This document shows positions 3,501-52,755 of a DNA stretch of 64,000 bases, piece after piece. The notes below the pieces were generated by a model. That model had not been told where the DNA came from. It worked only from the letters and a program-made list of their open reading frames with translations, and ran no database searches. The position numbers were made by a program, and so were the translations under genes. This DNA comes from Ruditapes philippinarum (lineage: Eukaryota), in assembly GCF_026571515.1 (NCBI RefSeq), contig NW_026858102.1:1-64000 (forward strand), in the 5' to 3' direction. Position 1 is the first letter of the stretch. Every line of letters starts with the position of its first letter.

Positions 3501-6500
3501 AGCCGACAGGCGCTCTTCATGAAGTTTATGTGCAGATAGGTGTCTTTCAAGTTGGGAATCGACAACTTTCACGAGAATTTTGGAGACAAACGGTAAATTA
3601 GATACAGGCCGGTAGTTTATCATAACCTCTTGATCCAACCCTGACTTTCTGATTAAATTCGGAGCATATATCAACCTCTAGTAGGATGATCACGGATATG
3701 TACCAGGAAATATGTATACGGAGTGCGAGCAATATGTGTTTTCCAAAAATAACCTCACCTAAAACAACAACAAAACAGACACAAGAAAAAAGAAACAATA
3801 AGCGTATATAACTTACAAGAATCTGCATGTAAGGGCGTCGGTTATTCTATTCACTGTACTTGCATATTCATTAGACTCACTGAAATTTGATTTGTACAAC
3901 AGATATTCGAGACACAGCATGTAATATAGATTTAATATTTCAAAGCAAAATATGATGAAGTTTGACCATAAAGACAGCATGACTTTCGCGATTAATTGTA
4001 TTGGTAGATAATTAAAATCGTCCCCCTGGCATTATTAACAGTTAAGATTGTGTTTTACATATGCCATTGCTCTTTATGTAAGTTGAATTTTCAAAAATAT
4101 ATTATCCCAAATCTAAGAAGGCATGAATGATATCATTACCCTGCTGTTTGAACGTCTTCGCTGTATGAAAACGCACACTTTAATATAACCTCCAATGTAT
4201 ACATACAGACGTGCTGGAACACTTCGAATCTTTCATTGGTTTTTGCTTTAGCCGCAAGTTTTTTCTGCGAGAGAAAAATTGACAATATTTAAACATAATA
4301 CTAGAAATATTAAATAAAATTAATTATTTCAGATATTTTTACATAATTAAATCATATACAGTACTAAATCTAAATAAAATATTTTGGTGATTTCATCGTT
4401 TGAAAATGAGACACATTAGCTCGGACATCTAGAACTAATAAATTCTAACAAGGCATTAATTAATGCGTAACTGTTCGCTAAACATAGAAAAGAAGAACTA
4501 TGCTTTAAAAAATTATAGTGTAATATATCCTAAGACCAAATGCTAGAATCAAATACCATTGAGTGAGGGAAAGGTTGATTTTGTAAACTATGATATTCTA
4601 TTTCTATATATACTACGAAAACCTACAACGAACACATCAGCAGACTGGTTATATACATTCATATACGGCTTCAGTATGTCAAAGTGAAAAGCGGGAGTAA
4701 GCAGACGTCTGTTTCGCGCCCATTTTTCACCGTTAGCTACAAGCAATCCATCTCCAAGCCACGGATATAAATGTCTGTAAGCTCCATCTAAACCCATCGA
4801 CTTGGGTTCTGTCATAAAGGAAAAGTATAAATGATTAACTGCAAGCATCTTTGTTCTATATGCCAAACAATGTATTTCAAAGCAAGATGAGTAAATATAA
4901 ATAAGCTTTTCACATTAATTTTATTGATGTTACTTGGTCTACTTGTACTGTATGTTTATGTTGAAACATCAGAAAACACTGACACTTATATCGGCCTCAC
5001 AAGGCTAATTGTTTCATTGAGAACTATAGACAAATTAAGCTGAAAACAAAGAACAGGTCCCGGAACATTTCATTCAATATTACAGTAAAAGGGCTCATTA
5101 ACCGATTAAAATTACTATATTTAGTTAAAGAACAGTAACATGTAACCCCTAGGCTTCCGGTTAATCACTTTGTTTTATGCATCTTTGCTTTCTATTCAAA
5201 CAAAATATAAATTTTATAAAAGATACTGACCATTGCCTTTTAACACTTTTGCAGTTACACGTGGACAGGTTGGAAACAAAATAAGTTTACCCAGCATGCC
5301 CCACAGTACAACATACCCTTGCTCACTTCCGTATTTATTACCCATTTCCATCAAATACGTTGTTAGCTCATGACTATCAGTCGGCAACTAAAAAATATAA
5401 CGAAAAAACAATACATGTATTAAGAAAATATTGAACGAGAACAAAGTTTACATTTAAGTGATTCCACTTATGATCCTTTACCTTCATTTTCATCTGCCTT
5501 TTCTTTTTCCTCTTACTCTTTCCATTATCATCATGATTATCAATATCGTAAAATATGTAATTATGACAATTGTTTTGTTTGTTTGTTTCATTTTACGCCT
5601 TTTCCCAACAGTATTTCAGTCATATAGGCGGGTAGTTTCCAAACCATCGTTCCTGGAGAGTTACACCAGTACTTGACAACCTTCCTCCGCGCTAAACTAC
5701 CAAAGCATCTCCCGGGGATCGAACCCACGCCAGAGAGGTAACTGGATTAGAAGTCATCGACTCTAACCCCTCGACCACGGAGGCGGTATATGACAATTGT
5801 AAATATTATTCATCATCATTGTTATCCTCATTATAATTACCATTATTATTAACATTATTTTTTGTGCCCCCACTTTAGTGGCGGGCATTTAGATTTATCC
5901 TTGTCCGTCCGTCCTCCGTCCGTTCTCTTTTGTGCCTCACGTAACTCAAAAAGTATTTGACCTAGAGTCATGAAACTTTACAGGAATATTGATCAGCATG
6001 TGCAGTTGTGCACTTGGGTATTTTCGTCAGGATATTTTTAGCATTTTTAGAGTTATTGCCCTTGACTTAGTAAATTTTGCAATTTTCACCTTGTGTCGCA
6101 TGTTACTCAAAAAGTATTTGACCTAGAATCATGAAACTTTACAGGAATGTTGATCAGCACGTGTAGTTGTGCACATTGGTATTTTCGTCTGGATGCATTT
6201 TTAGAGTTATTGCCCTTGAAACTTTGTCTGTAGCATTTTCTTTGGGAGTCTTTTATCACATTCGCTAATATTAATTTGATTTGCCCCTTTAAGGAGTTTC
6301 TAGAGCTAAAATAGATAAAAAATACCCTTTAAACATCTCCTTCTACTGAAGTAATTTGTGGATGATCACCAAACTTTGTTTGAAGCATTTTTGGGTAGTC
6401 TTCTATCAAATTTGCTCATATTAATTTGATTGGTTAATTTTAGGGGCCTCTAGAGCTAAAAAAATAGAAAAACCTTTAAACAGCATCCCTTGCTGAACTA

Positions 6501-9500: not shown

Positions 9501-12448
9501 ATTCAGAGTCATCATGGCCCTCTTGTTTTTTTGTGTTTTGTTTTGCTTCTTCAAAGCTCTTTTTAGTGTACTGTTATAGTTCCCAAGCAGTTAGCTTATT
9601 TGCCAAATACCTGAAACTTCTTATTTTCGGGTGCTTTTTGATAATGAGTACATTTAACGTGATTTAGTTACAATTTAGTCAAAATATTACAATGTTTACA
9701 TTTTATTATTTCCATGACAAATAATTTAACAATCAGTGCTACTTTTGTCAAATGACAAGCATCTTACATGCTCTGAAACCATTATTTAAACGTTATTAAA
9801 CTTGCAAAAGAAGGAAAAATTTAAAGGTTTTTGATGCATAACATGTCTATAACCATTCTTCCTGCATAACAACATTTACACGGTGCGTAATTGTTTCGGG
9901 CTGATTTGATATATTTCCCCGTTTCTGAACTGATTTGAATTTATGGCGCCGGATTGATTCACATAAATTGGACTTTTAGCTAGACAGGTAAGAAAAAAAA
10001 AAATAAACACATTAACATAATGTAAGTCATTGAATATATTCTACTTGCATGGAACATTGTATTATTTAAGGAATTCATATACATGTACATGTACAACTTT
10101 ATGAAGTTTAAATTATTAACGGTTTTTTATCAGTCAGTTGGAATCAACAGGATCAGGCGCACACCAAAAATTCACCCATAGTACATCACTCAGTTTGTTG
10201 AGTTTTCGTCGGCATGAATCTATAGATTTACACATTTTTTTTTGTTCTATATTTATTGACCTTCTTTATGTATGTCTCTTTCCGCGCGTCAACTTTAATC
10301 TCCTATGATAAGTCAATCTTTTTGACAAATATATAATATTTTGGTCCAAAATGTATATACATAGTAATTTCTTAATGTTCGGAAATTTGTCAAAATTTAA
10401 ATTTCTTTTATTTCAGACAAAGGGATTTGTATTTTTGTAGTCGAATTTATTTGTGCAGTCTAACACTTCTGAATAGCGGTAAATTGGCAACAACCGTCAA
10501 GTTGATGAAACACAGCAAGTAGACAACAACAACAAAACAGGGATCCGTGGAAACAAAATTTATAGAATAATTGTTTCATTCATAGTATAGAAAAAAGGAT
10601 GGATAAAAGTATCAATATATGACGCATAAGGCCATGTTATCTTGAAGCCGGATCGATTTAAAACCGGGCTGACGAGCATCGAAAAACGGGCTATATCTGA
10701 TTTAATTGTACGATGGAGCGTAGCCCCCGAGTATAAATCAGATTTCCGAGTGTTTTGATGTTCTTTCTCTTTTGTATCATAGTCAAACATAAAAACGTGT
10801 ACACGTACGTTCCCTGATACCACAAAATGAAACCCCACAAAAATGTAAATAATGAACGAGCATCTTAATATGATATTTCCATCGCTATTCCTTGATCTGT
10901 TGTCACAATATGTAAACCCATGTCAAAATGAACCAATCAATGGGCATGCTCTGGAGTGCGGGTAACCAGTTAACACACTGTGCATGTATATGTATACGAT
11001 TTAACTCTTGATACATTTTCAACAGAAAGGTCCCCAAACTATGATACAATGGTAGGATAGACTTTCTTCCTTCTGGGCACAGTAAATTCATATCATAATA
11101 ATAATTGCTAACTGCATATTTCCCAAGGTGTATGGATCAATTTATCTGCATGCTGAGGACACAAACCCGTACTGCTCATTACAATAACATGTGAATAAAA
11201 CCATTCTTCTGTCGCATCTGAAAATTGTGTTTTAAGATATATTTCCATTCAACAAACGACTATTAAACCTCACGCATCTTGTTATTTCAGTGATTTCTCT
11301 TAACAGAAGATATACCACAATTCTGAACTATTTTCCCTTTACCTTGCATGTACAAGTGTCAAATAAACCTTAAACATGGAAGCACACGGCTAAAATGTGC
11401 ATGGTAAACTTGGATTAACTATACAACTGTGTAATATAGAACATGGTTTAAGTAATAGAAACTCAACAAACTGACTTTTGTGTGAGGATATAAACAAAAT
11501 CAAGGCGCATATAAAATATATGTTTAGCGCTTCACCATAATTTAATTCCAACTCTTATTTAGGAACATTTTAAACAAAGTAATTAATCTAAATAACTTTA
11601 GATAACACATGAAACTTTGCTCTACTTCCTTTTTAAAATGGCCATGAGCTTTTACGAAATTCTGTCAATCACATGGTATGAAAGCACATAATTAAAGGCG
11701 TATTCTGTAGTTACATAAAGATGTAAAGGCACAATAAAAACTGCATAATAAAATTTATTTTTAAACTTTGTATGCTTTTAGAATATGATAAAGTCGTTTA
11801 AGGAAAATGAGACCACCGAGCTTTACTTCAAAACAAAGAGAGGAAAATATGTGTTAATAACATTGGTGTATCATCGAATACAGCAGTATATTTAAAGCAT
11901 AACGTATTAGCGATAACTTGTTGGTTTTGTAGTATAAATCCTCCGCCTTATTTTTTTCCATTTTCTTTTACCTGTTAAACAGCTAGCTAGATAAACAAAG
12001 ATTCATATATATAGCAGATCAGCTAGTAGAGAGCAAGCAATTGAGGTCAATAAAAAATTTATAAAATGTTATTAACCTTGAATTTTTTCTATATTAAAAC
12101 ACCAGATAAGGTTTGTGCTATATTATAACCCCTGTAAATATCACGATAAATAAAACAGTTGGCTGTACAACAGATTGTTTTATATTACAAGCGTATGTAC
12201 GGTGTATAGCCTTGACATATAACCACATTATTTTTTGATATTTTATTTACGTTTAGACAGAATAAAAATAAAATACTTACATAAAAGTAACTGCCAAACA
12301 ACCAGTGATATTTTTCTGGTCCCTTAGCTCCATTAAATATTTTCTTGTTTTGTCGATACTTGATGAATATTGAAACAGCATGATAAAAGATGTATGTTCC
12401 TATAATTAACAAAACTGTTTGTAGGATCACATTTAATGTTGGAAACAT
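560..12448 (-). CDS. Cytochrome P450, CYP4 clan (CYP4F-like), paralogue A; 3' part lies beyond the left edge of the window
   Basis: Eight GT-AG exons in consistent phase: 12281-12448, 5231-5387, 4627-4808, 4140-4264, 3817-3879, 1574-1697, 997-1129, 560-689. They encode an N-terminal membrane anchor, WxxxR ([18 protein letters not shown]) and the CYP4 I-helix [16 protein letters not shown]. Exon sizes are identical to paralogue B. Confidence 0.95.
1154..1388. mobile_element. Palindromic ~235-bp MITE (Sola-like), copy 1
   Basis: GAG...CTC termini, ~100-bp inverted arms, 4-bp TSD AAAT on both sides; lies in intron 6 of CYP paralogue A. Confidence 0.9.
2037..3660 (-). mobile_element. 5'-truncated non-LTR retrotransposon (L2/CR1-group LINE) with reverse transcriptase domain, in intron 5 of CYP paralogue A
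   Basis: ORF 2589-3674 has [43 protein letters not shown] and [10 protein letters not shown] degraded C-terminus follows, then a (TAA)n 3' tail at 2037-2063. Confidence 0.92.
5574..5788 (-). mobile_element. tRNA-derived SINE with intact 12-bp TSD
   Basis: Minus-strand A-box-like TGGTCGAGGGG and B-box GGTTCGATCCC, (CAAA)n tail, and TSD TATGACAATTGT at 5562-5573 and 5789-5800. Confidence 0.9.
5862..6220 (+). mobile_element. Helentron-associated non-autonomous element (HINE), 5' part
   Basis: T-run followed by GTGCCCCCACTTTAGTGGCGG, a (GTCC)n microsatellite and ~160-bp tandem units; closely similar to the inverted copy at 22132-22967. Confidence 0.8.
8050..8325. repeat. Tandem repeat, ~69-bp unit x4
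   Basis: Repeated ctggtcaattcccgggatccct...gatcccggcttttctgaaaacta; this explains the periodic spurious ORF 8059-8388. Confidence 0.85.
10746..11049 (+). repeat. Interspersed repeat fragment shared with 48002-48308
   Basis: About 300 bp of colinear similarity, from ccgagtgttttg to ccaaactatgatacaa. Confidence 0.85.
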
Positions 12449-14431
12449 GTTTAATGTCTGTCAGAATATAGTTCTGATTAATTTCAACATCAAGACACGA
12501 CTCATCCGTTAGCGGTGTCTCGACATAAATTAGAGACGCATATAAAATATGGAGGCTATTCGTTGCCAAATATTTGACAATACATACTTAGGTTCTACTA
12601 AATCTAATTGTCGATCCGACCGCACCGGTATTAAGCGTTTTGATTCTCTCAATTTGATAAAAATGGAAGTTGTTAACATGCAACTTACATAAATTGCAAA
12701 CTGTATTTAGAAATATATAAATTTAAATGTTCGACATGTATAAATGTACACGATAGAACGTACACAACACGTTTTATGCCGCATATTATGACGTTGAGAA
12801 TGTAAATGCATCAGTTAACACTCTCAGGTTAACAACACCACACTTACATTTTACGCGATTAACATTTGTAAACGATTTTGTAACTGTAATGTTCTAAATA
12901 GAACAAGACCGTTAAAGGGATTGTTTGATAACACAGGATAGTTTCTAGCTTTTAATGTTTACTGTACAAGTGTATTATAAGAACTAACTACAAGTATCAG
13001 AGGCAGAGCCTGCATGTATTATTCATAGGAGGCGGGGCTTATCATTGCTGACAGCAGCATACTACAGTTACTTCCATATATGGCATAATCAGGGTAATAG
13101 AATAAGATTAAAAGGCGGAGCCAATTTTCACGAGAGCAGAATATAAAGAGAGGCAACTCTTCCTGTACAGTTATAATGAGTACAAAAATATTTCAAATTA
13201 AATGAAACTCTTATGGAGTAGGTCTTCAGCGAACCCCTTTTTATGTATTTATCTAAATAAATTACAGCTTTAAAATCTTAAAAGCTGGTACCTTAACTTG
13301 ATTTCATTCTGATTTAAAGCAGATAACTATTTTTATGTACAAGAAATACTACACAGAATTTGTATTACGTTTTGTTAGTGATGGCTTTTTCATAGTGATA
13401 AAATGAAGGTATACATAAATTGATAATCAACATACATACCTTTGGACTCATTTAAAATAATTTCTGAAAAAATATGGTAAAAATGCAAAAATATATCTAC
13501 ACGTACTGTATGGTAAAAATAAGAAATGAAAAGTACGAAAGGGTACATACAACTTTGGTTTTAATTTTGATATCGTTAAAAATGTTTTCTTGTCAAGTCA
13601 TACGCTAGTATTAAAGTTACTAATATAATAGTAAATGCTACTTCTATAAAAGACAACAGTTAGAATTTATTCTTGTATTTTAGTATTTAGTCGTAGCAAC
13701 ATCTCTACCAGATGTTGGCTTGAAAATTTGAAAGTTAACTTGTAGAGTAACAGCTTCACTGTCATTCAAAGTTACTCATTCCTATGCAAATTGGAATCCA
13801 CTCAGTAAAATTTATTTGTCTTTAAAAAGAGCATGTTGATTATAGTCTTAACAATAATTTTAAGTTCCTTGAAAATTGTTTATCCCCAAGCAACCCTATT
13901 AAAAGTTAGATTGAGACAGTTACCTGGTGAGTTTTAGTTTCTTTTTTCTAGGTATTGGGGTATGTACAACTTTTCAAAACTAATAGGCCTATAATAATTT
14001 AAATTCCGCTGATGTTGATTGAATAAATGCATAGAATGGCAATCATGCAAATGAATTATTTTTGGTGAATAACTGTCATGATTTGCAAACAGCTAAAATG
14101 TATGGTTAACGGAATCTACGCCGGTAATTAACGAAATAATGAACGGATAAAAACGTTTATTTACGATGATGTTGTGGGCGGGTGAATGGGCAGAGCTTAT
14201 TTTATCTCTTATTGCAAAATATGAACAGCTGGATAATGTTGATTTGAATCATGATGGTTTGACAATGTAAAGCTAAGAAAGTAACTTAATTCTGTTTTGT
14301 TGGCTTGATATTGCTACTCTCAGGAAACCAGTTAATGTTTTAATTTGTCGTTTAACAAAATGTATTTTGTTGAAATTCATATTTACAAAGTTAAATCGGC
14401 AAACTCAATCCAACAATGCAACATTGGAGTT

Positions 14432-18352: not shown

Positions 18353-21300
18353 TCAAGTCTTTCGTTTCTCAACAAACATGTACATTCCATTCTGTGTTCT
18401 CATGACAGAGGACATTTTACGTTTTACTGTATGTGATGGGTCAAGACGAAATGAAAAACTGAAATATAAAATTCAATCAAATTATATTTGTTGTAATATG
18501 TGGAAGAATTTCCTATAAAAAGTGATTATATCAATATTTTTGTTTAAAAAAAATCCAAAAAACCTTTATATTCTTTATATCAGGTGTTTAAAGTGCTATG
18601 TAACAGATGTAAAATGTCGTGCCATACTTAATTCAAGTGTAATTATTGCTATTCGGATCATTGATTCCAACACTTTTCAGCCAGTGCTAGGGGCGTGAGA
18701 AATGTAACATCTTTCAAAATCTCTCACCAACAGACTCATTAAAACCTATTTGCTTTTATTTTTCATTTCTCTCAAACGATCACCCCTTTATAGAATATAA
18801 AATATCTATCAAAGAGATGTTAAATGTTATACAAACAAAACTTTTTACTACAGGACTTCTTCTAAAAAAACTCTTTGATGATGTTTCCTATTTAAACTAC
18901 ATATTTAGTAAATAAACATACTTTCTAAGTAACTTTGTCAGGATAACCTTTTCTTCATTCATAGCGAATACTTGTCCGATACAGTTTCTAAAAAAATAAA
19001 AAATCAATAAAAAGATAATGATGTGTTTGCAAAAAAAAGCATAAAGGTTGTTCAACCTTCAAGGAAAAGTCACACGGATACAGTAAGGTCATGTGGCGAC
19101 TTCTCAGCTTTACTGGTACAGGAAAACATTATTATCCAGGTACTAGCACCTGATAAAAACAACCTATTTTCCTTAAGCAGAAAGTTTCCTCAAATGAAAG
19201 AGGATCCAGTGAATCGAGCAGGGCTTGTACCCACAGCAGCGGAGCTTGAACTCACAGCAGTGGGACTTAAACCCACATCAGCGGGGCTTGAATCAACAGC
19301 ATCGGGTCTGAACACACAGCAGCGGGGCTTGAACCCACAGCAACGTGAGTTGAACATACAGCATAGGGGCTTGAATCCACAGCAGTGGGCTTGAATCCAC
19401 AGCAGCGGGGCTTGAACCCACAGTAGCGGGGCTTGAATCCACAGCAATGAGGGGCAAGTGATTCAAGTTAAGCTACCTTAATAATTCGCTCATATAGGCC
19501 CCTAAAACTTGATATAATTTCAAATAAAAATATTTTAAGTGAAAAATTAGTACTTTAAAAAAAAGTGTTGTCTTTTGGTGATATATGACAATACTAAAGA
19601 TGTTAGAAAATAATTTCAGTGCTATAACAGTTGTACTTTGTTAACGTACAATTAGTAACACCTACCTTGGTCCTGCAGAGAACGGAACATATTGAAAGTG
19701 CTCAATACTGTCAACGTTTTCCTTTGAAAATCGGTCTGGCTTAAATTCCATGTGATCTGAGCCCCAGATAGTTTCCATGTGGTTTAAAACCCAAATATTT
19801 GCGATGACCGTTGTCCCTTTAGGTGCAACTCTATCACCTAGATCAAAGTCTTGAGTGATGTCTCGTGTTATAGCCGGAACCGGAGCATGTAGACGCATTC
19901 CTTCCTTAATACACATAGTAAGATATTCTAGGTGACTTAAGTCAGACCTATGAAATACAGAAATAAGTTTTATACAAATAACTTCCACTGATTGATTTTA
20001 TATATCATCATCAACATGGCATTGTTTTATTATGTTAACATAAAAATATATTTATTACATACGGCCCACCTTTACAATTCAAGAAGTCATAAAATCATAG
20101 TTGTGTCATATAAAATTTATACCAATCCAGGTCATCTGTTTCCCTGCCTGCAAGTATCTCATCTATCTCCGTCTGACATTTTTGTTGACATTCAGGGTGC
20201 TCTGCCAGAGAATACAAAATCCATGATATGGCACTGGCTGTTGTGTCGTGACCTAAGAAAACATATTTATAAATTTACTGACATGTTTCATTCATTTGTT
20301 ACGAAAATGTATAACAGACATCTGTATCAAGTCATTTATTTAATACAGAAGCATAAATAATATTGTGATTTACAATTTACGAATCATAATTTATATATAT
20401 TTTGGTTCCAACCTACTATGCGTATATTACTTTAACTTTAATATCATGAAGGAAATTCATTAAGTTAGGATCAAGGTCACCTTCAAACAAGAAAGTATCC
20501 ACTTCGTTCCGTATCTCCAGTTTTGTAAGACCCTGTCCGTCTTCGTCACGTGCTGTCAAAAGAATATCTAGGAAGTCAGTGTATCGGCTGCCTTTGGTAC
20601 TATCTTGTTCATTCTGATATTAGACAAAACTAAAATAAATTTTGGCCAAAAATTGAAAAAAAATGTGTGTAAGTCCCTGGAGAACTTTATAAGAGACAGA
20701 TATAAAACTTTAATTCAACTTTGTATATTCTTTTTCAATACGTTATATCTTTACGGATTGGGGCTTCAGAACTGCTGCCACCATTTGACCCTGCATGATT
20801 TGTAAGAGACGCATTTGTGCATCTCTTCGTTCTCCACGAGTGAGGTGGTTTTCACCCCTTTTGTTGCTTTAAGATTATAATACCCCAAGATAGCCATAAT
20901 CATCTTTCCTGTTTCAATGCCATATGAGCTGTAGCGTAAAATTAAACAAAACAAATATTGTGATATTTAAAGCTATTCGTTATTTATCTTTAGTTAGTCA
21001 GTCAGTCAGAGTTGTACTATAGTTTAAATTACCAAAGCATCTCTCCTATTGTCAATTACTTCCTCGGCTACTGTATGAACAAATTCACAATCTTTCTTAA
21101 ATTGCCGTCCGATTGAACTAAACTTCCAGATGGTATCAAAGTACATCAACGGATTGCTAGAAAAATGCAAAAATTATTGAAAAAAAATATGTAAGTTTAT
21201 GAAGTTGTCTATAGGTACTTTAAATCACATCCGCATACTTAAGATTATATTTTAACTGGTAAAACTTAAATGGCTTTCGTTTTGAGAATACGACATTTTG

Positions 21301-24300
21301 GAAAAAAGTTTTAAACCAAAATTGGCATTATTGGTTCTTTCCTGTAAGTGAGCATCGACCTTAAGTCGTTTTGAGATCACGGACATGCACTCGAGTCTGA
21401 GTTCAGCTTTATAATACATTACAACTACGATAAAGAAGAAAGAAAAGAATAACAGAAAGGCAGTCACGCAATGTACAATATGAGTTTATAACTTACAGGA
21501 ACCTGTATGTCACAGCGTCTGTTATTCTATTCACTGTGTTTACGTATTCGTTTGAATCACTGAAAATGACATTAACAAACGTAATTACAAATCAGCAAGT
21601 TTATATTCAGTATTAAAATTACAAAACTAGTTACAGGGCTTTTGATCGTAAAGAGAACAAGGATAACCATGAAATATAGGTACAATGTATAATTAAATAA
21701 ATGTTAATCTGTTCGTCCTCCCCTGTTTTTCTATTTAAATTTGATTTTTAAATATTTTATTTATCTTGACGTAGGTTCACTTGTAAGACTATATTTTTTT
21801 AATTTTAAGTCGAATGTAGTAATAAAAAAGTACAATTGAGTTCCTAAACATTTGTTTATAATTTTAGCTACAAAATAGAAGAATTTATCGAATTGTTAAA
21901 AAAAAGATATCATTACCCCGCTGTTTGAACGTCTTCGCTGTATGAAAACGCACATTTTAATATAACCTCCAATGTATACATACAGACGTGCTGAAAAACT
22001 TCGAATCTTTCATTGGTTTTTGCTTGAGCTGCAAGCTTTTTCTAGAACGAAATATTGGCTTATTGAATTAGATAACTTGAGACGCATAATATAGGCTTGA
22101 ATATTTCAAACATTCCTACAATATCAAAGAAACTAGAAATGTGTCCATAGGACACGGGTGCCCCGACCACGCCACTGTTCTGTCAATCTTATGACTCTAG
22201 GTCAAGTGTTTTTTGAAAACTCAAAATCTTTTACTAAGTAAAGGGCAAGAACTTTACAAATACTGAATAAATCCACAAGCAAACCTTTAAGGTGCATAAG
22301 TACACATGTTGACCAACATTCTTGTAAACTTTCAGGCCTACAAGTGAAATGCTTTTTGAGCAATGCATGGACACGTTGAAAATTGCAAATTTATACTACT
22401 GTAAGTCAAGGGCAATAACTCTAACAAAACTGAAAAAAATACACATCCAAAGTCCCAGGTGCATAGCTTCACAGTGATGTGAATCATTATTCCTGTAATT
22501 TAGTGATTTTTATCATCATTCCTGTAAAGTTCGTTGATTCTTAATCAAGTACTCAAGAAACACATAACAACATAATGAAACTGTTTTTACTTAGTCAAGG
22601 GAAATAACTTTACAAATACTGGATAAACCCACAAGCGAAACCCCAGGTGCAAAACTAAATAAGCTGAGCAACCTTCCCGTAAGGTTTAATGACTCTAGAT
22701 CAAATCCTTTTTGAATAACATGCGACACAAGTTGAAAATTGCAGAAATTTTATAAGTCAAGGGCAATAACTCTAAAAATACTAAATAAATCCATGCGATA
22801 ATACCCGGTGCACAATTACACATGATGATCAATATTCCTGTAAAGTTTCAAGACTCTATGTCAAATACTTTTTGAGTTATGTGCGACACAAAAGAGAACG
22901 GACGGACGGACGGACGAACGGACGGACAAGGTAAATCTAAATGTCCGCCACTAAAGTGGGGGCACAATAAAATGTAGGAAATGAATCTATGTAAAATGCC
23001 GCTTGAAAAAAGGTACACTCTGAGATATTGTAGAGAGAGTCAATTCTAACACGGCATTAATTTTACATTTCTTGAGTAAAAATAGATAGGAAAACGATGG
23101 TGTTCCTCCACCAGTGAAGCTGGAACGTCGCCATATGAACTTTAATGAGTCGGCGTGACGTAAAACCCAATTAAACAAACAAACAAAAACATATCAGCAA
23201 CACCAAAATATATTGCGATATGAGTTCAAAGAATTTAATTTTTACAATTCAAAATTAACACGAATTTGGCAATGCGTGTACATTTTTGTAGTTCAGTATT
23301 GCCGCTATTCTATGTTCTGCCCGAAGGACTTTAACATTTTGTATGTTAAAATTCAAGAAACTTACAACGAACACATCTGCAGACTGGTTATATACATTCA
23401 TATACGGCTTCAGTATCTCAAAATGAAAAGCGGGAGTAAGCAGACGTCTGTTTCGCGCCCATTTTTCACCGTTAGCTACAAGCAATCCATCTCCAAGCCA
23501 CGGATATAAATGTCTGTAAGCTCCATCTAAACCCATCGACTTTGGTTCTGTTTCGATATAAAAATGAAATGGAAAATATAGTATCCTTGTTCATCATGAC
23601 AAGACTTGTCTCAAGTTCTAAGCAAAATAAAAGTAATGACTTCTCAATAATGAGTCATATCATATATAATGTAAAGCTTTAAACTGCAAGCAATTCCATT
23701 AACGTGTATTGCATGTTGATGTAAGTTATCAAAAACACTGGCACCATTTCCCTAAAAACAGATGATTTGATTTATGGAGAATTAACAGTAAAACAAAGAG
23801 AGAAAAAGATACCCAAACGAACTTAACATTGTGATAATTAACATTGGATTTAAATTACAATGTTACACTGACACGATTTCAAACTATTATGTTTGGTTGT
23901 TATGGTTTATTTAAATTATTTTGCGTATATTATTTGCTTTCTGCACAAGTTTTCAAACAAAATATTAAATACTGACCATTGCTTTTTAACAGTTTTGCAG
24001 TAATACGTGGACAGGATGGAGCCAAAATAGGTTTACCAAGCAGTCCCCAGAATACAACATAACCTTGATCACTTCCGTATTTATTACACATTTCGATCAA
24101 ATACATTGCCAGCTCATGGGAATCTGTGGGAAACTGAAAATAAAGTATGAAAGAGATTAAGTAAAAGAACTTTTAATCCTTCAAGGAATTCGCCCATTAA
24201 AAGCAAAAGATTTTTTTTCTTTTGAGCATAACCTATAGACACTGGCAAAAACACTTCTAAATGCGACAGCCATATTGACCTCCAAATACAGATTTTCTTT

Positions 24301-25359
24301 AATACTTGCAGAAAAAATACAGTGACTGCAATCTGCCTTATAATGCGATTGCGGGGCTGAACCACCACTTCTCTCTCTGTAAAATATGAGTTAACCGAGT
24401 CAATGGTTAATCAGTTTTACCATTCTCAAAATGTTTTGGCTACTTAAAAAACGACTTCCGTCATTTATCTATGAAGCAGAAATACGTACTATATTTATAT
24501 TCTGCTTCTTAATAAAACTACACCTATAACTGTCAATAACTTTGAAAAGAATGAAATAAAATAAAAGAAAAATAAAAAAAATCGTTTGCGAAATTTCGAG
24601 CAAGTCTTCTTTAAATAATTTATCCCCTAGTACTACATCATCAGAATTATACCTGTGAAGCTAAAATGATTAAAATAACCCAAGCATCAACAAGAATTTG
24701 TAACAGCCCTAGGAAGTTTATTATCAAACACAAAATTGTAAAACATTTTTTTACATATACAAAAATATCGTATACCATCAAGTCTCAATAAAGTACTTTA
24801 TTGAGACGGTATTTTTCCACATATGTGAAAATTGTTTGAAAACCAGTTTTATCGTTGTAAAAGATGTCCAATTCATGTTTAAATATTAAAATATTTTTGA
24901 TATAGTGTTTACAGGGGCGTATCACATTTGGGAAAAGATCTGACCCCAAGCGTCTGTGATAATGCATTCAATGAAAGCATATTTTCAATAGCATTGTAAC
25001 GTCGCATAAAGGTTCGTCCTATATTATGACCTATTAAACCTAATCTTTTAATATCATTTAGGTCAATATAAAGTAGCTGAAGTTTATTTGACAAGTTAAC
25101 AAATCGTTTATATTATTGTAAAGTCATCTTGGCATTTAAACTTGTTTGCTGACATAGAAGTCCCGTTTAAACAGAACAAAAACATACTTACATAAAAGAA
25201 ACTGCCAAACAACCAGTGATATTTTTCTGGACCCTTAGCTCCATTGAATATTTTCTTGTTTTGTCGATAATTGATGAATATCGAAACAGCATGATAAAAG
25301 ATATATGTTCCTATAATTAACAAAACTGTTTGTAAGATCACATTTAATGTTGGAAACAT
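18353..25359 (-). CDS. Cytochrome P450, CYP4 clan (CYP4F-like), paralogue B; complete, 511 aa
   Basis: Eleven exons: 25192-25359, 23977-24133, 23366-23547, 21917-22041, 21497-21559, 21033-21156, 20481-20613, 20123-20252, 19666-19947, 18922-18987, 18353-18458 (1536 nt, open frame). Motifs: [13 protein letters not shown], ExxR (EGMR), PERF-like (FKPDRF), heme motif PFSAGPRNCIGQ. Confidence 0.96.
19062..19501 (-). mobile_element. tRNA-derived SINE with an internally amplified B-box minisatellite, in intron 9 of CYP paralogue B
   Basis: Body ggtcatgtggcgacttctcagct is shared with the SINEs at 23095 and 40397; tRNA-like head at about 19425-19501. Confidence 0.75.
19218..19446. repeat. 21-bp minisatellite, about 11 units (GCGGGGCTTGAACCCACAGCA)
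   Basis: Read directly from the sequence. Confidence 0.92.
22132..22967 (-). mobile_element. Full-length HINE in intron 3 of CYP paralogue B
   Basis: On the minus strand: 5' TGCCCCCAC, (GTCC)n, ~160-bp tandem array, 3' GGGGCA subterminal repeat, GTGTCC-TAT-GGACAC hairpin and CTAGTT end. Confidence 0.88.
23095..23190 (+). mobile_element. SINE 3' fragment
   Basis: ttcctccaccagtgaagctggaacgtcgccatatga...gacgtaaaaccc followed by a (CAAA)n tail. Confidence 0.7.
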
Positions 25360-26770
25360 GTTTATTGTTTTCAGTTTACAGTACACATTAAAACAACATT
25401 AACTCTCGTGAAACCACCAAAACTCTTCACCAAAACACGATAAATCCGCTCCCGGTATCGACCCAACGTAATCGCTGAACGCGGTTAGAAAAGGCTAAAA
25501 GTTCATATCCTATACTCTGCTATCCTAAAATAAATCAAACGCGCGTAGAAGTAGAGCGAACGCTAAAAATAACAAAATATAATTATGCTTTCTTTCGATT
25601 TAAAAGTGATCTTTAATCGTTCAATTAAACTAAAGCAGTGTTTGAAGCCTGTTAATTTATTTGATATTTTATAGGTATAAATATGAGTTTATCACATAAC
25701 CGTTCGATCGGCTTTTCAGACTCCAAACAGAAATACACGGCCGTGCATATATTTTGAAGGACGTCGTCATTTATCAGTAAAAGTGGTATTACACGCTCCT
25801 TTATATATTTTGACGTGACGTTATTACGTTATACAAAACATAGTGAATAGACGTAACGCGCTTAAAGATCCTGTATGTTGTAATTGAAGTTCTATACCAC
25901 ACTTAAGTGAAATTATACATATGTATTTAATTATGCACATAGAACAATTTTCCAACATCAAAGAATATGTAAAATATATACTGCAAATATTCGTACATAT
26001 TATATGTAGTTATTAAATTATATGCATTCATTTCTTATTGAAAAATTTGATTTAGATTTAATAGAAAATAATTAATTTATTACTTCCCTTTATTTACATG
26101 AAATATTAAATTCAGTAATATCTTTATTGGAACTTACAAAGTTGATAATTCTTAATTTGAGCATCATATTTATGATATAAAACCATAACGAATGTGTGTT
26201 ACGGGATCTTTAATGTTAGCGTTACACTACAGGCACGTCAGTGAAGAAAAATGATTATTGTCTTTATTGTTGTATGTGATAAATAGAATATTATATTCAT
26301 GTAGGTTCATTACTAAATATATTGCAATCCTTCAATAATATAAAGTAATAGTATGCTCGCATAAAAGTTTGCATACTATATAATTTTATCCAACTCGTTC
26401 CTTCAATAAATTTAGTATTGAACTCATGCAATATCCTCTATTTATTACGCGTTTTAAAAGACATAGTGTACAACACAGCCTCAATGATAGAGTTTCAAAC
26501 AAAAAGAAGGTAATTTTAAAAAGAAAGTCTTTACTTTTACAGGTAGCTATAGGTATCTTATCTTGGAATGTGTTCAATAGAATATCACATTCGTATAGCT
26601 TCATTACTAAATGTATTCAAATTAAGGAGAAGCTAATATTATATATTTTAATTCAACTCGTTCTATTTCTTCAGAATGGAACCTACACTTATTAAATATT
26701 CTATTTAAATATTGCATTGATCGAGTGCATCATTTCATGAATACGTAAAGAAAAGTAATCATACGTTTCT

Positions 26771-40641: not shown

Positions 40642-42324
40642 GAAACACACATTTCAAAATATACGAACACGTATAAACCCACATATTAGTAATAGTTAAC
40701 AGCATTTTAGTTTAATAGTTAATTTCTAGTTCAACATTTTCAATTTTAATTTTAGATACTTTTCTAATTATAAAATAATATTTAATTAAACTTACCAGAT
40801 TTCCGTCAACTGATCAGTCCAAGTAGCTGTAAAATAATGTTGAGAAAAAAAGAAAAGAAATGGTATGAAACCGGACCTTAAGTAGTTTATATTGTCCTTG
40901 CTAGTGTATTCAAATTTTACAAATACAAATCAGTAAGAAACAGGTTGTGTTTATTTCCTGTTTCATTCACGAGGACACAATCCGGAGTAAATCGATTATC
41001 TAGAGTTTGCATCAAAGTACTTTTATATACATGTTTAATAATTATTAATTGTTTAATGATATAGATCTGTTTGTTGACATTGTGAATAAATCATTTTGAG
41101 CCGGACTAGCTCGACTTTTCGAAGAATAGAATGAGCTATTGTAATCCCCCACCAAATTCTTTTATATATAAGAAATCACTCTCTTGCGAGCCAATACAAT
41201 GCAATGGGAATCCTGTCTTGCAATTACAAATACGTTTCAATTCCGAACTCTGTACATCTCTTGGGAGTCTATCTGTTTTAAATTGAACCTTTTTGTTATA
41301 ACAGGAAGTATACTTGTTTATATACGGGTTAATTGTTTGCCTGCAAATTGGTATCTGAAAGAAATGGGTTGAAACTTTACACACTTGTTCTCGGTGATAA
41401 TCTAACATGGTGGCCCCACCGTGGGCACAAGTCCCACGTGCACAACTCTGTGTTGCCTTTAAACAGAGTCATACTGTCTATCACTGAGGAGTCTTGCGGA
41501 CGGCTCTTGTTTTTCCTTTCTTTCTTTCTTTCTTTTTTGTATTTAGTAAGATAATAAAGCTTAACAACTCTCCCACACTCCGGCCCACACATGGTTTGAA
41601 CGTTTCTGGAATAAAGCAATGGAAGAAGAAGAAAAACACTGCAACTTTATACTTCTACACTAGATTGTATTAAATAACGGTCTTTTTTGTTTTTGCACTT
41701 TCAGCTTGCTTTGACTTTAAACCGCAGCAACGTTTATTTATAAGGTGTGCTGCAAGATTTCCTGTATTTTTTTATAAAACGGTAAACCCTTTTCAAAAAT
41801 AATTGATGTACGTATTTTGCTTTTTATTCTAATTTAACAGCTACATTTTCAGAAATAAATATGAAAATATACATCGATAATAATCATTTGTGAAATACTG
41901 ACTAATTATATGAAAATTTTGTATCTTTTTAGATACCAGAACCTTGTGTGAGTCAGAAGCTATATATACATAATTTCAGTAACATGCCTACTTTTCTTAC
42001 ATAATCAGGTCTTTTTATTCGCTGCGTACATGACTTCCAACTTTCTGACATACAGTCATAGATTTCCAAGATACGTGAAATATCATTTAGCAAGCACAAC
42101 AAAATGTGACCTCCTCGGCCATGAGATAATGTGTTATTCATATAAGCCGTAGTCTTATTACTATAAATTCTTAAAACATGGGTAAGGTTGTTTTTACACA
42201 GGTAGCCAGTTAAGTTTGACACACTGATATCTGCCAAAACTGATCTAGGAGCCATATATAAGAATAATTCATTAAGTTTATTTTGGGTTACATGTAACAT
42301 ATCTATCACAACCACTCGTCAGGT

Positions 42325-42351
42325 CACTGATTTATGTAATATAAATCCGTG
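42325..42351. mobile_element. 27-bp palindromic insert with 7-bp TSD (probable DNA-transposon footprint)
   Basis: GTCAGGT|CACTGATTTATGTAATATAAATCCGTG|GTCAGGT. Confidence 0.8.
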
Positions 42352-43739
42352 GTCAGGTGAACATTTCTTTACTTCAAGAACGTTTCAGCTTTAGTTTCAT
42401 AATCGTTTTTTACTTTTGCACATGCATTTCCGTGGCTCTATCCGGGAAGACGAATAAATGAACATTGTTTTTCATTTTAATTTAATGAGTAGCTATCTTA
42501 TTTCAAATCAGGCTCTAATGTGTTAGTACTTGAGTACTGAGATGTTAAAAACTTATAGTATATCTAGTTAGGTTACCCCCGTCACGAGTATGTCATGTAA
42601 ACAGTATATATATATCTAAAATAAACATACAAAAGTCTAATAATTTTTGTTCTAAATTTTAGTTACTTTATTTCTTTTGAACGATTACAGATGTTATTAT
42701 AGATATACAGGTGAACAGGACATTATTTATATGTTGACTATTATGTTTTTCGAAACCGGAAGTACTGTCGTATAGTACGCATTTCCTCAATTAAAACCCG
42801 TGGGTCAATTAGGTGGACAGCTCGTCCGGTCACATAGTAAACATACAAAACAACAATAGTACTTTCCGCCTGATAAAGATCTTAAATTACTAAAATGTGG
42901 ATAAAACATTTTATTAGCGGTAATTTCGGTGTCGTTTTTAATGTTAGTTTGGCACTCACTTAATTAATTTTGGTACGCAGTTATAACTTACTCTTTAAAT
43001 TGTTTAACTTGGAAACTTTGATTATAAATAAATGTTGAACTTACTGTAAATGCATATTCTAGTAAACAATAATTAAACTGAATGACATTTGAATATACAC
43101 TGTGTTGACTTATTGTATTTGAGTTTTTTCAGATAACCCGGTTACAATACAGTACAAGCTGTATTTGCGGTATGCCAGAAATACTTTTCAATCATAATGA
43201 CCGAAATTGACTTCCTTTTCCGTAAGGTGTCAAATAGAGGGAGACCGGGACAAAGAGAATAGACGGAGTTGGGGGGGGGGGGCGGGTAAATGCTCGCTGA
43301 AAATTATTTAGTACGTCGCTCATTATGCAAAATTTTAGTCACCCTAAATTTTAAGATATTTGATTGCCAGGGGAACGATAGCTACTTTCGGACAGTTACA
43401 GGAAGAAAATTTTACCGTATATCGTGTATTTTGTTGCAGCTGAAAGTATTTTTATAGGATTTAAATATTATTAAAACAAGAAATTATTTAGTTAAATCCT
43501 AAATATAGGTTATCATATAATATGAAACGTGCATGTATGCGAACTAACACGATGCCCATATCATGTGACTTTTGTGATCTGCATCCAATAGTAAAGTCAG
43601 TCCTCAAACTTAAAAAAAAATGTGTTCAACTGAATGAATTTAAATATTCTTTCTCAAATATCTAGTATAATTTTTTCAAGTTATTTGTTTGTTAAGTACA
43701 ATTATCACTAAGCGAAGTACTTCAAATGTCTGTTACACT

Positions 43740-46892: not shown

Positions 46893-47309
46893 TGAAGTTA
46901 TATGTACACGGTCTAAGAACCATATTATTCTAAATTAGGGTTTGTAACTCTTATTATTTCGACGCTAGACCTGTTGTTTAACACAGATGTAAATAATCAT
47001 GGAGCTTACTATAAGAAAGAATAAAACAATTTTAAAAATCTGCGACCATTCTGGAACTAGTTTGCTTGAAAATTAATGCGCCTGTCATTTGACAATCTTT
47101 ACGCAGTGATCTCCCCTGAATATTTCGACGCTAGTGTACATATAAAGGGAAGTAACCGCTTCAAAAAAGCGGACTACTTTCGGCATTTGCAATTAACAAC
47201 ATCAGGGTCTGAAATTTCGCTACCATTATTTGTTTGGTCTGACGACCCAAACGTAGAATCAATTAGCAGCTACGAATATGATGATCGGTCAAAATCTTTT
47301 TATATATGT

Positions 47310-48000
47310 AACTCGCGTATTGACATCGTTCAGTCATTTAAATACCTTGGTGTTCATTTGTTTAAAAACGGGAAATGGAATCGCACGCAACAGAGAATCG
47401 CTCAACATGCTCAGTTTTCACTTCACAATTTATTTATTGTTTACAACCTATTAGAACTACCTGTATCCCAAAAAAATATATCTTTTTGATTCTCTTGTAA
47501 TGTCTTCTCTTAATAACTTATGGGGTTACCACGCTGGACCAGATATTGAGATTGTACATACGAAATTTTGTAGGAAAGTTCTATGCGTAAAACGCTCAAC
47601 AAACGAAGATGCTCTGTACGGCGAATTAGGGAGGACACCAATGAATGTGTATCGAAAAATTATATTGATAAAATACTGGGTTAAACTAATTACTTTGGAT
47701 AATCAATCACTACTATTTAAAACTTATAATATGTTGACGAGGGATGCTGAATTAGGACATACATATAATGGTAATAACTGGGCTAGTCAGATTAAATAAA
47801 TACTTTATAATTACGGTTAAATGTACTTATGGCAAAACCAATTTAACATTTAAATTAGCGTAAATATGATTAAACAATTGATATTAGATGTGTATTATCA
47901 ACAATGGTGCTCATCAATAAATAACTCTCCTCGTCTCGAAACGTATTGTTTATATAAACATGAATGTAAATTAGAAAGTTATCTCGACTTTATACAGATA
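47310..48000 (+). mobile_element. Degenerate LINE ORF2 C-terminal fragment (RTE-X-like, tentative)
   Basis: FKYLG, LFDSLV, IEIVHTKFCRKVLCVKRST, LYGELGRTP and IKYWVKL across frameshifts. Confidence 0.8.
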
Positions 48001-48463: not shown

Positions 48464-48656
48464 ATGGGATAAATTTTACATCAACATGAAGTAGCCTTGT
48501 GCACGTGGTTATAGACCATTTTGAAATTTAGCGCGTGTGCAATGATTATAAAATATTATTAGATCTACACTTATTTTTAACATGGAGCTAAATATGTGCA
48601 TGTATACCTGTGTTTTTAAAGTGTAGTTTATTGTTATAAAATATTGTCAGTTCTAT

Positions 48657-48686
48657 CACGGATTTATATTATAATATAAATCCGTG
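48657..48686. mobile_element. 30-bp perfect palindromic insert with 7-bp TSD (probable DNA-transposon footprint)
   Basis: GTTCTAT|CACGGATTTATATTATAATATAAATCCGTG|GTTCTAT. Confidence 0.85.
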
Positions 48687-49202
48687 GTTCTATGCCTCTG
48701 GAGAAAATGTCGTAACGGGACACCATATTCAACTGTTAGACAAACTTTAACAACAACGGCCTTCCATAGATCTGACAGCTTGTGATCAAGACGCTTTCAA
48801 TAAAATATGTATTTGTAAGCGTCTGACCAACAAAGAAGAAAAGGCAAGTTTGAATTCGACGAGCGGTAACAAAACAAAGTTAAAAACCTAAAAAGAACCA
48901 TTTTACGATAATATTATTCGCATTTATCTTGAGATTAAGGTTGGGAATAATTTCATTAAAGCATACTTCAAAAGTTATGTTAAAACATGGTGTAAACAAT
49001 TTGTATATAAGCAACAGTTTGGTTCACAAATTATGGGCCAAATTTAAGAATCTAGATCTATGCCAATTTCAAAATTTATGTTTAATTTTCGTTTTGACTC
49101 TTACTGCACTAAACTGAATATCAGTGAGATAAATGAAAATCTAAATTAACTTGATATCAGAGAATGAATGAGGCAAAATTCTAAATTTATCCAATCAATG
49201 AT

Positions 49203-49989
49203 GGTTTACAGACACTTCACCCCCCCAGACACTTCACCCTAGGCCCTTTTTTGCAGACACCTCACCCCTTAGACAGTTCACCCCTCATTTTAAGAAATTT
49301 TATTAAGACACTTCACCCCCCATTTTTTTTATTTTGTGTTCAACAATAATTTATGTTCAAAAATGTCAAATGTATTCAATACTGTACAGTAGTGATTGAG
49401 TATGTTTATTGTCTTAACAAATGTTATATATTATTTTATCATGTAATTGACCAAAGACAATGGTTATATTGTTGTTTTTGCACTACAAAAAGGCTCATAT
49501 CACAAAGTTGAAAGTAAGTAAATTTTTGTTCTTTATTTTTATATATTAATACTTATTTCAATTTATGTGTAAGTGATATAACTAATTGAATAATCTTTCT
49601 ATTGAAGTGTGTGAACTTTTGCCAGTGTTTAACACTGTTGCAGAATAGAAAATGTCTGTGAAGGTCTCCTCTGACTGAAACTGTAAATAAATATATATAT
49701 ACATGTGTGTACATGTGTCACAGTGTGTTCTCTCAATGTTATGTTTCAATGATATAATATATATAAGTGTTTGTCAGCTGTAAATTGTTGTTCATGTTAA
49801 ATGTTTTACTAAAAAATAATAAAAATAAACATATCAAGGCATTATGTTGTTGACTTATTTACTTTATATAAAAAAATGGATGAGGGGTGAAGTGTCTTAG
49901 GGTAATTTGGGGGGTGAAGTGTCTTGAGGGGTGAAGTGTCTTCAAAATTTGAGGGGTGAAGTGTCTGGGGGGTGAAGTGTCTTGCTACC
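49203..49989. mobile_element. Non-autonomous foldback-type DNA transposon, 8-bp TSD
   Basis: TSD TCAATGAT at 49195-49202 and 49990-49997; inverted subterminal arrays of GACACTTCACCCC. Confidence 0.9.
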
Positions 49990-50168: not shown

Positions 50169-51615
50169 GGGAAACGGACAAAAGCCCTCCCAGACAAAAG
50201 CCCTCCCATCAAAAAATGCAAAAAATAATTCTTTTATCTGTATCACTGAGAAGCTTAGCCGGTGAAACAGTATGTTTAAGCTCGTCTAATTTATCGGAGA
50301 CTCCGACGGGTAAACTCGATTTAACTGGAACTGACACGGACGTGACGGAGCCTTCTGTCCCAGGAATATGTTTTCCATGTGACTTATTTGTCGTACTAAT
50401 CTTATCCGGAACTGTAACGACCGGACCTTTAGTGCCCGAAATTTTCGTAGACACCTTAGAACTCGAATCTTCCGTCAAACTTGTCGAACTGTGACTAGTT
50501 GAAGGAACACTGACGGGACTAAAACCCGAAGCCATTTTTCTATAGTCTATAGCTTTTCTAGCCCTAGAACTCCTCATTCAAAACAGAAAATTATGTTACA
50601 GAAAGCTCTGTATTCAACGTCAAAAGAAAAACAAATTCAAAATAAAAGTTTTTCCCCACTGGGAAACTCCTCTGAAGAACGTAAATTAGTCCATATAAAA
50701 CTGTATCCTAGAGAAGCAAAGTAACCACAAAAATATTATATTCTTTTCAAAATGGCCACAGACAAAAGCCCTAACATTCATGAAAAATGACTGGTGGACA
50801 AAAAAAGCCTTATTTATAATAACCCGTGAAATTCAAAACTAGATTTTAAAAGGGAGACAATAAGCCACAAAAGCCCTCCCGTAACAAAAATAATTATGTA
50901 TGTATGTTGAATACCTGTGTTTTTTTCATTGCACTCAACATATTAAAATTGTTACATATATTTCTTGTTGTTTCAATTGGCCTAAGTATGGTGTACGAGT
51001 TAGAACCAACCTTTTAAAATTCTGAATTCTTCTTCCATTGCAAACTTTTTTACCACGAAATGTAGTTTTAATTAAAAAAAAAATCACTTTTATAAAGTAA
51101 ATGAATCAATTAACGGCAATATTATAAATGTATTTTAAAACTTTTAAAGTTAGATAATTTTAATTCTTTTCATTATGATTACTCTACAATTAATATTAAT
51201 TCACATAGGAAGTAACCTTCATATCTACGTTGAATAAAAAATGCAACTTTTAAAGCATTTTAGCACTTATTATTCAGATGGCCTCTAGGATATGTGGCTT
51301 CAACTCAATACAAACACAGGTTATGGCCAATGGAAAACAAAAATATTCATGGAATCACAATTTTTTTGATATTGTTGAGGTGCGATTGAAAAAATCATAA
51401 ACTATTCAAAAGTACATATGTATTTGCTGCGGGAGGGCTTTTGTCCGCCCTATTATTTTCACAGGAGGGCTTTTGTCCGCCAAGTCATTTTTACGATAGG
51501 GCTTTTGTCCGACCTGTCATTTTCATGGGAGAGCTTTTGTCCGCCTTGTTATTTTCACGGGAGGTCTTTTGTCCGCCTTGTCACTTTTTGACGGGAGGGC
51601 TTTTGTCCTACACTC
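50169..51615. mobile_element. Non-autonomous foldback-type DNA transposon, 8-bp TSD, with an internal foreign segment
   Basis: TSD ATTTGATC at 50161-50168 and 51616-51623; inverted arrays of GACAAAAGCCCTCC. Confidence 0.9.
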
Positions 51616-51871: not shown

Positions 51872-52755
51872 GGTAATAGGACATTTCAGACCATGGACAT
51901 TTCAGACCAGATTTTGGGACACTTCGGACCATATTTCGGGATTTTTGGACATTTTGGACCATGTATTGGACATTTCGGATCATGAGTTAGACACTTCAGA
52001 CCATCGTTTTGGACATTTCGGACCAGATCAAATATTATTTTTTGATATATTATGCATCAATTATTCTATAAACTAAAGAGTAACTTTAGTATAAATGAGA
52101 CACTATGGAACGATTTTACACCTATCCCGATTAAGATTTTATATATTTTGCAATATAAATGAAGAAAATTAAGGAAAAAAAACAAGCAATGTTTTGTTGA
52201 CACACATTTGCAAACAATTTATTATAAAGTATATATACAAAAAGACATGACGAAATATAACTTTTTCAGTTTGTAAGCTGTATAAGTTATGAGGATGAAA
52301 TCAATTTCTACATCGTTTTATATTGCAGTCTGGACATCAAATTTTTGACAATCCATTTGTTTATTGTTTATTATTGATTAAAACTGTACTTAACCGCATT
52401 CCAATCAAACCAATCAATTTAAATAGTTGTTGTCAAATTAGGTACAAATTACAATACATACTTACGTGTTCTATTCAGCAATTAAAACATGTGAAAAACT
52501 GCATTGAGTCTGACAAGGATGTCGTTGTTCTTTAATACCTGCCAGAACACAATTTAATTTGGTAAAAATTTACTTTATAATAACAAATAATCATAATTAT
52601 ATAAAAAGGGAATAAATGGTCTGTTGAAAAAAAGTTCTGGTCAGAAGTGTCCCCATCATGGTCCGATATGTCCCAAAATCTGGTCCGAAATGACCAATAA
52701 ATCGGGTCCGAAGTGTCTGGTCCGAAACGTCCGTGGTCTGAAATGTCCGTACTTC
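51872..52755. mobile_element. Non-autonomous foldback-type DNA transposon, 8-bp TSD
   Basis: TSD GTAGGAAG at 51864-51871 and 52756-52763; inverted arrays of GGACA(C/T)TTCGGACC. Confidence 0.9.

Follow-up and report, generated by a model that had tools for sequence, protein, structure and literature searches.

Elements of the P superfamily encode a transposase that has an N-terminal THAP DNA-binding domain and an RNase H-like core with a GTP-binding insertion, and that cleaves its donor in a GTP-dependent manner. Their terminal inverted repeats (TIRs) have CA...TG ends. The P ends printed in PMC2895639 agree with this rule, and P transposase is described as cleaving with a 17-nt stagger (PMC7776569, PMC10983969). 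End-joined P donor sites are reported to keep both target site duplications (TSDs) and at most 17 nt of each element end, with junctions that are blunt, share microhomology or contain templated filler (PMC2895639). In Drosophila mojavensis, a 27-bp sequence with 12 + 15 bp from both ends of BuT5, a non-coding MITE associated with the P superfamily (PMC3698922), was read as an excision footprint (PMC3355041). This type of scar is already known from PMC2895639 and PMC3355041.

Here, we analyzed a stretch of 64,000 nt of Ruditapes philippinarum DNA (the window), in which the initial annotation had described a 15 + 15 palindrome flanked by GTTCTAT at 48650-48693 and interpreted it as the scar of an excised P-type element. 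The structure is present exactly as described, and we conclude that it is very probably a P-superfamily excision footprint. Like end-joined donor sites of Drosophila melanogaster P, it belongs to a family of stubs composed of a TSD, up to 17 nt of TIR, a junction, up to 17 nt of TIR and a TSD (PMC2895639), and this family shares CA...TG ends, a TIR of ~30 bp and a homologous transposase (6P5A) with P (PMC2895639, PMC7776569). The two differ in that the TSD is 8 bp in Drosophila P and 7 bp in the stub family, and in that the P junctions come from laboratory excisions whereas the stubs are natural inherited scars numbering hundreds to thousands. BuT5 likewise provides a natural stub in which both ends of a non-coding P-superfamily element are represented; it is, however, a single example, located at an inversion breakpoint and flanked by TSDs of 8-9 bp, compared to 1,408 stubs with 7-bp TSDs here. 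New here are the parent element, the transposase, the genome-wide limit at 17 nt and two LINE-filled stubs, and in a literature search of incomplete coverage we found no study that had surveyed natural P footprints across a mollusc genome.

The stub at 48650-48693 and its host site

By sequence inspection, the perfect 30-bp palindrome (48657-48686) has one copy of GTTCTAT on either side and a blunt 15 + 15 junction without filler and without microhomology (Table 1). No perfect palindrome in the 64,000-nt window is longer (arm of 15, with 13 in the runner-up), and base composition predicts 3.4e-4 such palindromes per window by chance and ~5e-8 if the 7-bp repeat is included. The flanks are mostly single-copy, and the insertion site lies within a small decayed repeat. 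A paralogue of this site (L201, on G000:C6079) has only one GTTCTAT followed by the same right flank as the window copy. Because this paralogous empty site has a single GTTCTAT, the direct repeat at the stub is a true TSD made by insertion. The window copy differs from L201 by an additional short indel to the right of the TSD, and in a second paralogue (L206) the target site is present with two substitutions.

In contigs of other samples from four studies, the palindrome is joined to the right flank in 4/4 and to the left flank in 3/4. Because these contigs join the palindrome to its flanks, it is not an assembly artefact. Among the matches listed in contigs of four samples, the summed depth of the palindrome was ~500-640x that of the right flank, and none of these matches contained a joint that skips the insert; similarly, neither an empty nor a full allele of the locus was found among the matches listed for the four samples of the four studies. 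The stub is thus real and common to different individuals. The locus itself shows no sign of function.

Table 1 Coordinates of the stub at 48650-48693, its host repeat and the second stub in the window
Feature	Position	Strand	Evidence
Left TSD copy GTTCTAT, 7 bp	48650..48656	+	present once in the empty paralogue L201
Left arm, TIR nucleotides 1-15 (30-bp TIR of the parent element)	48657..48671	+	identical to the TIR start of the long elements
Right arm, TIR nucleotides 1-15 on the opposite strand	48672..48686	-	sequence; 5 exact genome copies, flanks all different
Right TSD copy, 7 bp	48687..48693	+	sequence
Small decayed interspersed repeat, recipient of the insertion	48520..48711	.	partial matches on other contigs; alignment with L201 and L206
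Second stub of the same family; 27-bp junction 42325-42351, one left-arm substitution, TSD GTCAGGT	42318..42358	.	sequence
Left GTCAGGT copy of the second stub	42318-42324		
Right GTCAGGT copy of the second stub	42352-42358		

The second stub in Table 1 is absent from the initial annotation, and its 27-bp junction recurs at 3/37 other independent sites in the genome-wide sample described below. Elsewhere in the window, we observed a perfect 26-bp palindrome (arm 13; 24782-24807) that is unrelated in sequence to the stub family and has no obvious flanking direct repeat. Three neighbouring inverted-repeat elements, in which repeats of 16-32 bp form subterminal arrays, lie at 49205-49982, 50175-51611 and 51874-52748. 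Duplicated exons on the minus strand (4591-4914, 12188-12460, 19665-19997, 23258-23590 and 25111-25398) resemble, by their motifs, what we take to be tandem cytochrome P450 genes, and decayed reading frames near the stub (47070-47796) and at the start of the window (2592-3677) are presumably LINE-like.

The stub family, its parent element and a candidate transposase

We searched the 1.41-Gb assembly for two 10-nt arms separated by a gap of 0-30 nt and obtained 1,408 matches, compared to 0 for the reversed pattern used as a control. The first 50 listed stubs are 22-43 bp long with varied junctions. These 50 loci, in which both arms by definition have at least 10 nt, served as our sample: 46/50 were fetched, two were dropped as identical to others, and two groups that ride inside other repeats were collapsed (8 loci with a 29-bp stub inside a 1.5-kb repeat, and 7 loci with a 37-bp stub, of which 4 were unfetched and assigned by their identical insert), leaving 37 independent sites. 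Extrapolating from 35 singletons in 50, there are roughly 1,000 independent stubs genome-wide. At the 37 sites, 27 TSDs are exact 7-bp repeats, two are 8 bp and two sites have neither; allowing one mismatch, 33 sites have the 7-bp TSDs that the initial annotation had expected at further copies. The exact 30-mer of 48657-48686 has five copies in the genome, all with different flanks (exact 7-bp TSD in four, one mismatch in one), and a 29-bp junction occurs at 5/37 sites that are unrelated to each other. A metagenome scan with the 22-nt TIR gave 0 matches.

The high-copy stub variants were amplified within other repeats and not by themselves. The 1.5-kb repeat (L275 716-2220 and copies among L274-L303) is young, with copies mostly 97-99% identical, has a hairpin rich in G+C close to one end, lacks an obvious TSD, and carries one 29-bp stub that was multiplied along with it; we presume it to be Helitron-like. 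We scored 40 of 1,192 candidates for a full or empty allele of this stub and fetched 30; none of these 30 copies had one, and all had the same 29-bp junction.

The 16-nt end of the stubs occurs 2,458 times in the genome, and many of these occurrences mark the termini of a non-coding element ~2 kb long, whose 30-bp TIRs start with CAC, in keeping with the CA...TG ends of the P superfamily. The longer elements with these termini predicted by the initial annotation therefore exist: 408 ends continue into the next five bases of the TIR, and in 34 copies inspected with both ends, the TSD is an exact 7-bp repeat in 29, a 7-bp repeat with at most one mismatch in 31, 8 bp in one and neither in two, so that the 7- or 8-bp TSD of the superfamily is found in long copies as well. 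The stub arms are the TIR ends of this ~2-kb non-autonomous family. The initial annotation had taken the stub to record the TIR; it records only the first 15 nt of the 30 bp. Stubs and long copies alike prefer targets with T and A as the second and sixth bases, respectively, and at position 1 T makes up 21/78 stub counts versus 7/62 long-element counts. Between 20 copies measuring 1.8-2.4 kb, the median pairwise identity is 92.5% (range 52-99%). A 9-nt motif, GATAAAGGT, is common to both ends of the long element ~75 bp inside and is a candidate transposase-binding site. Nine longer TIR-bounded copies (3.4-10.6 kb) contain nested repeats and no P transposase, and tblastn of ORFs from local P loci against 15 long-copy loci gave no transposase remnant in the 2-kb family.

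In a genome search, P-type transposase domains were found at 45 places for PF21787 and 13 for PF21788, and none for PF12017. We viewed the PF21787 and PF21788 matches over about 5 kb or more per side, and only on one contig (C4936) was the family TIR at an element end; stubs near P matches on C4936 and C664 were rejected as element ends, each having its own TSDs. This element (G000:C4936:146543-156451) is 9,909 bp long and has GTACATC on either side as a perfect 7-bp TSD. One of its ends is identical to the family TIR at 29/30 positions, resembles the initial 318 bp of the 2-kb element (~69% identity) and contains tandem repeats of ~210 bp. The other end, where no such repeats were found, matches the TIR exactly in the first 6 nt only and loosely beyond. 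A 556-aa ORF matches PF21787 (3e-27), PF21788 (1e-19) and PF21789 (1e-5) above the Pfam cut-offs and Drosophila P transposase (6P5A_A) with E=4.6e-15. A P-family transposase is thus carried by a related 9.9-kb element, the one copy in which such a gene was found inside the family TIR, with a frameshift in the gene and a degenerate second end. The gene is also frameshifted in a 90%-identical relative on C5360, and a search of 19.8 kb at that locus revealed no TIR. The initial annotation had anticipated a THAP/P transposase inside these TIRs; the sole one found is indeed of the P family, and no THAP domain was detected in the 355-aa upstream ORF, which had no usable Pfam, PDB or Atlas match. Unlike Drosophila P, the 9.9-kb element has two extra ORFs, a C2H2 zinc finger (below the Pfam cut-off) and an unclassified one of 337 aa. 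This element is a defective member of the autonomous lineage and does not establish the active source. Among the 408 family TIR ends, the first 100 were covered, and the family may have another partner.

Other P-type elements are present in the genome. Three P-transposase elements of 7.8-9.6 kb (L110 on G000:C10127, L141 on C11405 and L226 on C154) have CACAGG ends and exact 8-bp TSDs, and carry a helicase ORF (PF05970 PIF1, 2.6e-20 in L110) as well as another ORF without classification; ORFs like these also lie beside many other P matches. Our limited literature search found no description of helicase-carrying P elements. A second P-type family of ~6 kb (L235, G000:C8819, 1051-6974; L236, C8071, 938-7003) has exact 7-bp TSDs and TIRs different from those of the stub family.

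The initial annotation had also called the stub Galileo-type, which holds for TSD length and, loosely, for target preference and not otherwise. Galileo and 1360 are reported to have 7-bp TSDs (PMC2775673, PMC3698922), the target consensus given for Galileo (GTAGTAC) has the same T and A at positions 2 and 6 as the stub family, and its tandem subterminal repeats have a counterpart at one end of the 9.9-kb element. By contrast, the TIRs of the 2-kb family are short (30 bp) and not the long, internally repetitive foldback TIRs described for Galileo, and the target preference is looser. We place the stub family in the P superfamily without assigning it to Galileo.

Arm limit, junctions and the origin of the stubs

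The initial annotation had predicted an arm limit of ~17 nt, and this limit was found. At the 37 independent sites, 34/74 arms are exactly 17 nt long and the remainder are 10-16 nt; a P-type footprint keeps both TSD copies around at most 17 nt of each TIR, and the 7-bp TSD is present at 33/37 sites. The base after a 17-nt arm is T in 21, A in 12 and G in 1 case, whereas an arm continuing into the TIR would have A or G at this position. Measured uncapped, 0/78 arms reach 19 nt. Genome-wide, TIR bases 18-19 are present in only 6/1,408 stubs; two of these retain a longer TIR with intact TSDs and may be products of abortive gap repair, and the other four are compatible with chance or a junction-derived match. 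This limit suggests that the stub-family transposase cleaves its donor with a 17-nt stagger.

The junctions at the 37 sites fall into 18 without and 19 with filler and are blunt, have 1-4 nt of microhomology or contain templated filler, which are the end-joining signatures of P-type footprints and agree with the junction tables given for P in PMC2895639. In 12/15 filler-free junctions with an intact arm, the terminal A of that arm and a T of its partner arm are aligned, compared with an expectation of 3/8 registers (p=0.001). These A-T-paired junctions measure 27, 29 and 30 bp, with 23- and 24-bp ones seen outside the 37-site sample, and identical junctions recur because the terminal A of one arm pairs with a T of the other. 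Ten fillers of at least 5 nt match arm or flank sequence above shuffles (54 versus 46.4, p=0.002). In L063 and L168, the filler copies flank plus arm start, or an entire arm, resulting in duplicated ends.

Our working hypothesis for the stub at 48650-48693 is that a full element would have inserted at GTTCTAT and later been excised by a transposase whose staggered cuts, 17 nt apart on the two strands of each end, would have left the chromosome with two 3' single-stranded TIR tails of 17 nt. The last 2 nt would have been lost from each tail before the tails were end-joined; because both tails have the same sequence, the product would be a perfect palindrome. A stub without TIR nucleotides 18-30 and without the subterminal motif would be immobile and accumulate as an end state. 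At this locus, no full allele was seen among the matches listed for four samples, although an empty paralogue was found, and the 30 copies of the repeat-borne 29-bp stub included no full allele either; excision itself is therefore an inference.

Alternatively, the 22-43-bp stubs could be minimal mobile units that are moved in trans by a P-type transposase and make 7-bp TSDs of their own. That stubs at ~1,000 independent sites outnumber the ~200 long elements about 5 to 1, that identical junctions (the five 30-mers, the 29-bp form) are found at unrelated sites and that the full allele at 48650-48693 was not seen among the matches listed for four samples would fit such units. Nevertheless, we regard them as improbable, given that the junctions are diverse and in 19/37 cases contain filler, that the recurrent ones are those expected from terminal A-T pairing, that the high-copy variants spread inside other repeats rather than alone, and that TIR bases 18-30 are missing from the stubs, as is the GATAAAGGT motif of long element ends, whereas P transposase is reported to bind internal sites beyond the TIR (PMC7776569). 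Even less probable are extreme internal deletions made in place without transposase, by hairpin formation or slippage between the TIRs. The long copies do vary in length (1.2-6.9 kb, partly from nested insertions) and in two stubs the TIR extends beyond 17 nt, but a deletion between 30-bp TIRs offers no reason for a limit at nucleotide 17 and arms of 19-30 nt would be expected to be common, yet at most 6/1,408 stubs show bases 18-19. Finally, excision by a transposase of another superfamily, to which the single P-linked copy with one intact TIR and the TIR-bounded long copies without transposase remnant would lend themselves, is the least credible of these explanations in view of the perfect 7-bp TSD, 29/30 TIR identity and subterminal homology of the C4936 copy, the 7-bp TSDs of 1360 and Galileo, both placed in the P superfamily (PMC3698922), and the description of the 17-nt stagger as unusual to P (PMC7776569). 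Taken together, excision of a P-type element, as the initial annotation had suggested, is supported by further copies with 7-bp TSDs, by long elements with the same termini and by a transposase of the P family.

Among the first 100 of the 2,458 ends, two stubs (L051, 2,112 bp; L054, 575 bp) contain foreign DNA between intact 17-nt arms and intact TSDs. The L051 insert has a 428-aa reverse-transcriptase frame (RVT_1, 5e-27) and ends in a (TCTTA)n tail, and a search for further stubs with this tail returned L051 alone. The L054 insert has a 106-aa frame, presumably similar to a LINE C-terminus, followed by AATAAA and a (TTTGAC)n tail. Both inserts fit 5'-truncated LINEs with a tail, and the intact arms agree with capture at an open break; an ordinary LINE insertion into an older stub could also account for them. 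We tentatively suggest, at somewhat less than even confidence, that the ~1,000 scars preserve a natural record of germline repair at breaks with two identical 17-nt tails, some of which were patched by LINE 3' ends. A literature search of incomplete coverage revealed no description of LINEs captured where P elements had excised.

Implications for P-superfamily elements

The chain from the stub through its non-autonomous parent to a P-family transposase lies entirely within one genome. The 17-nt limit over 1,408 natural copies suggests that the odd cut of the Drosophila enzyme is common to a distant family with 7-bp TSDs that belongs to another animal group than Drosophila. The stubs also form a large natural collection of junctions in which germline end joining could be studied outside the model animals, and they offer a route to the TIRs and past activity of decayed P families.
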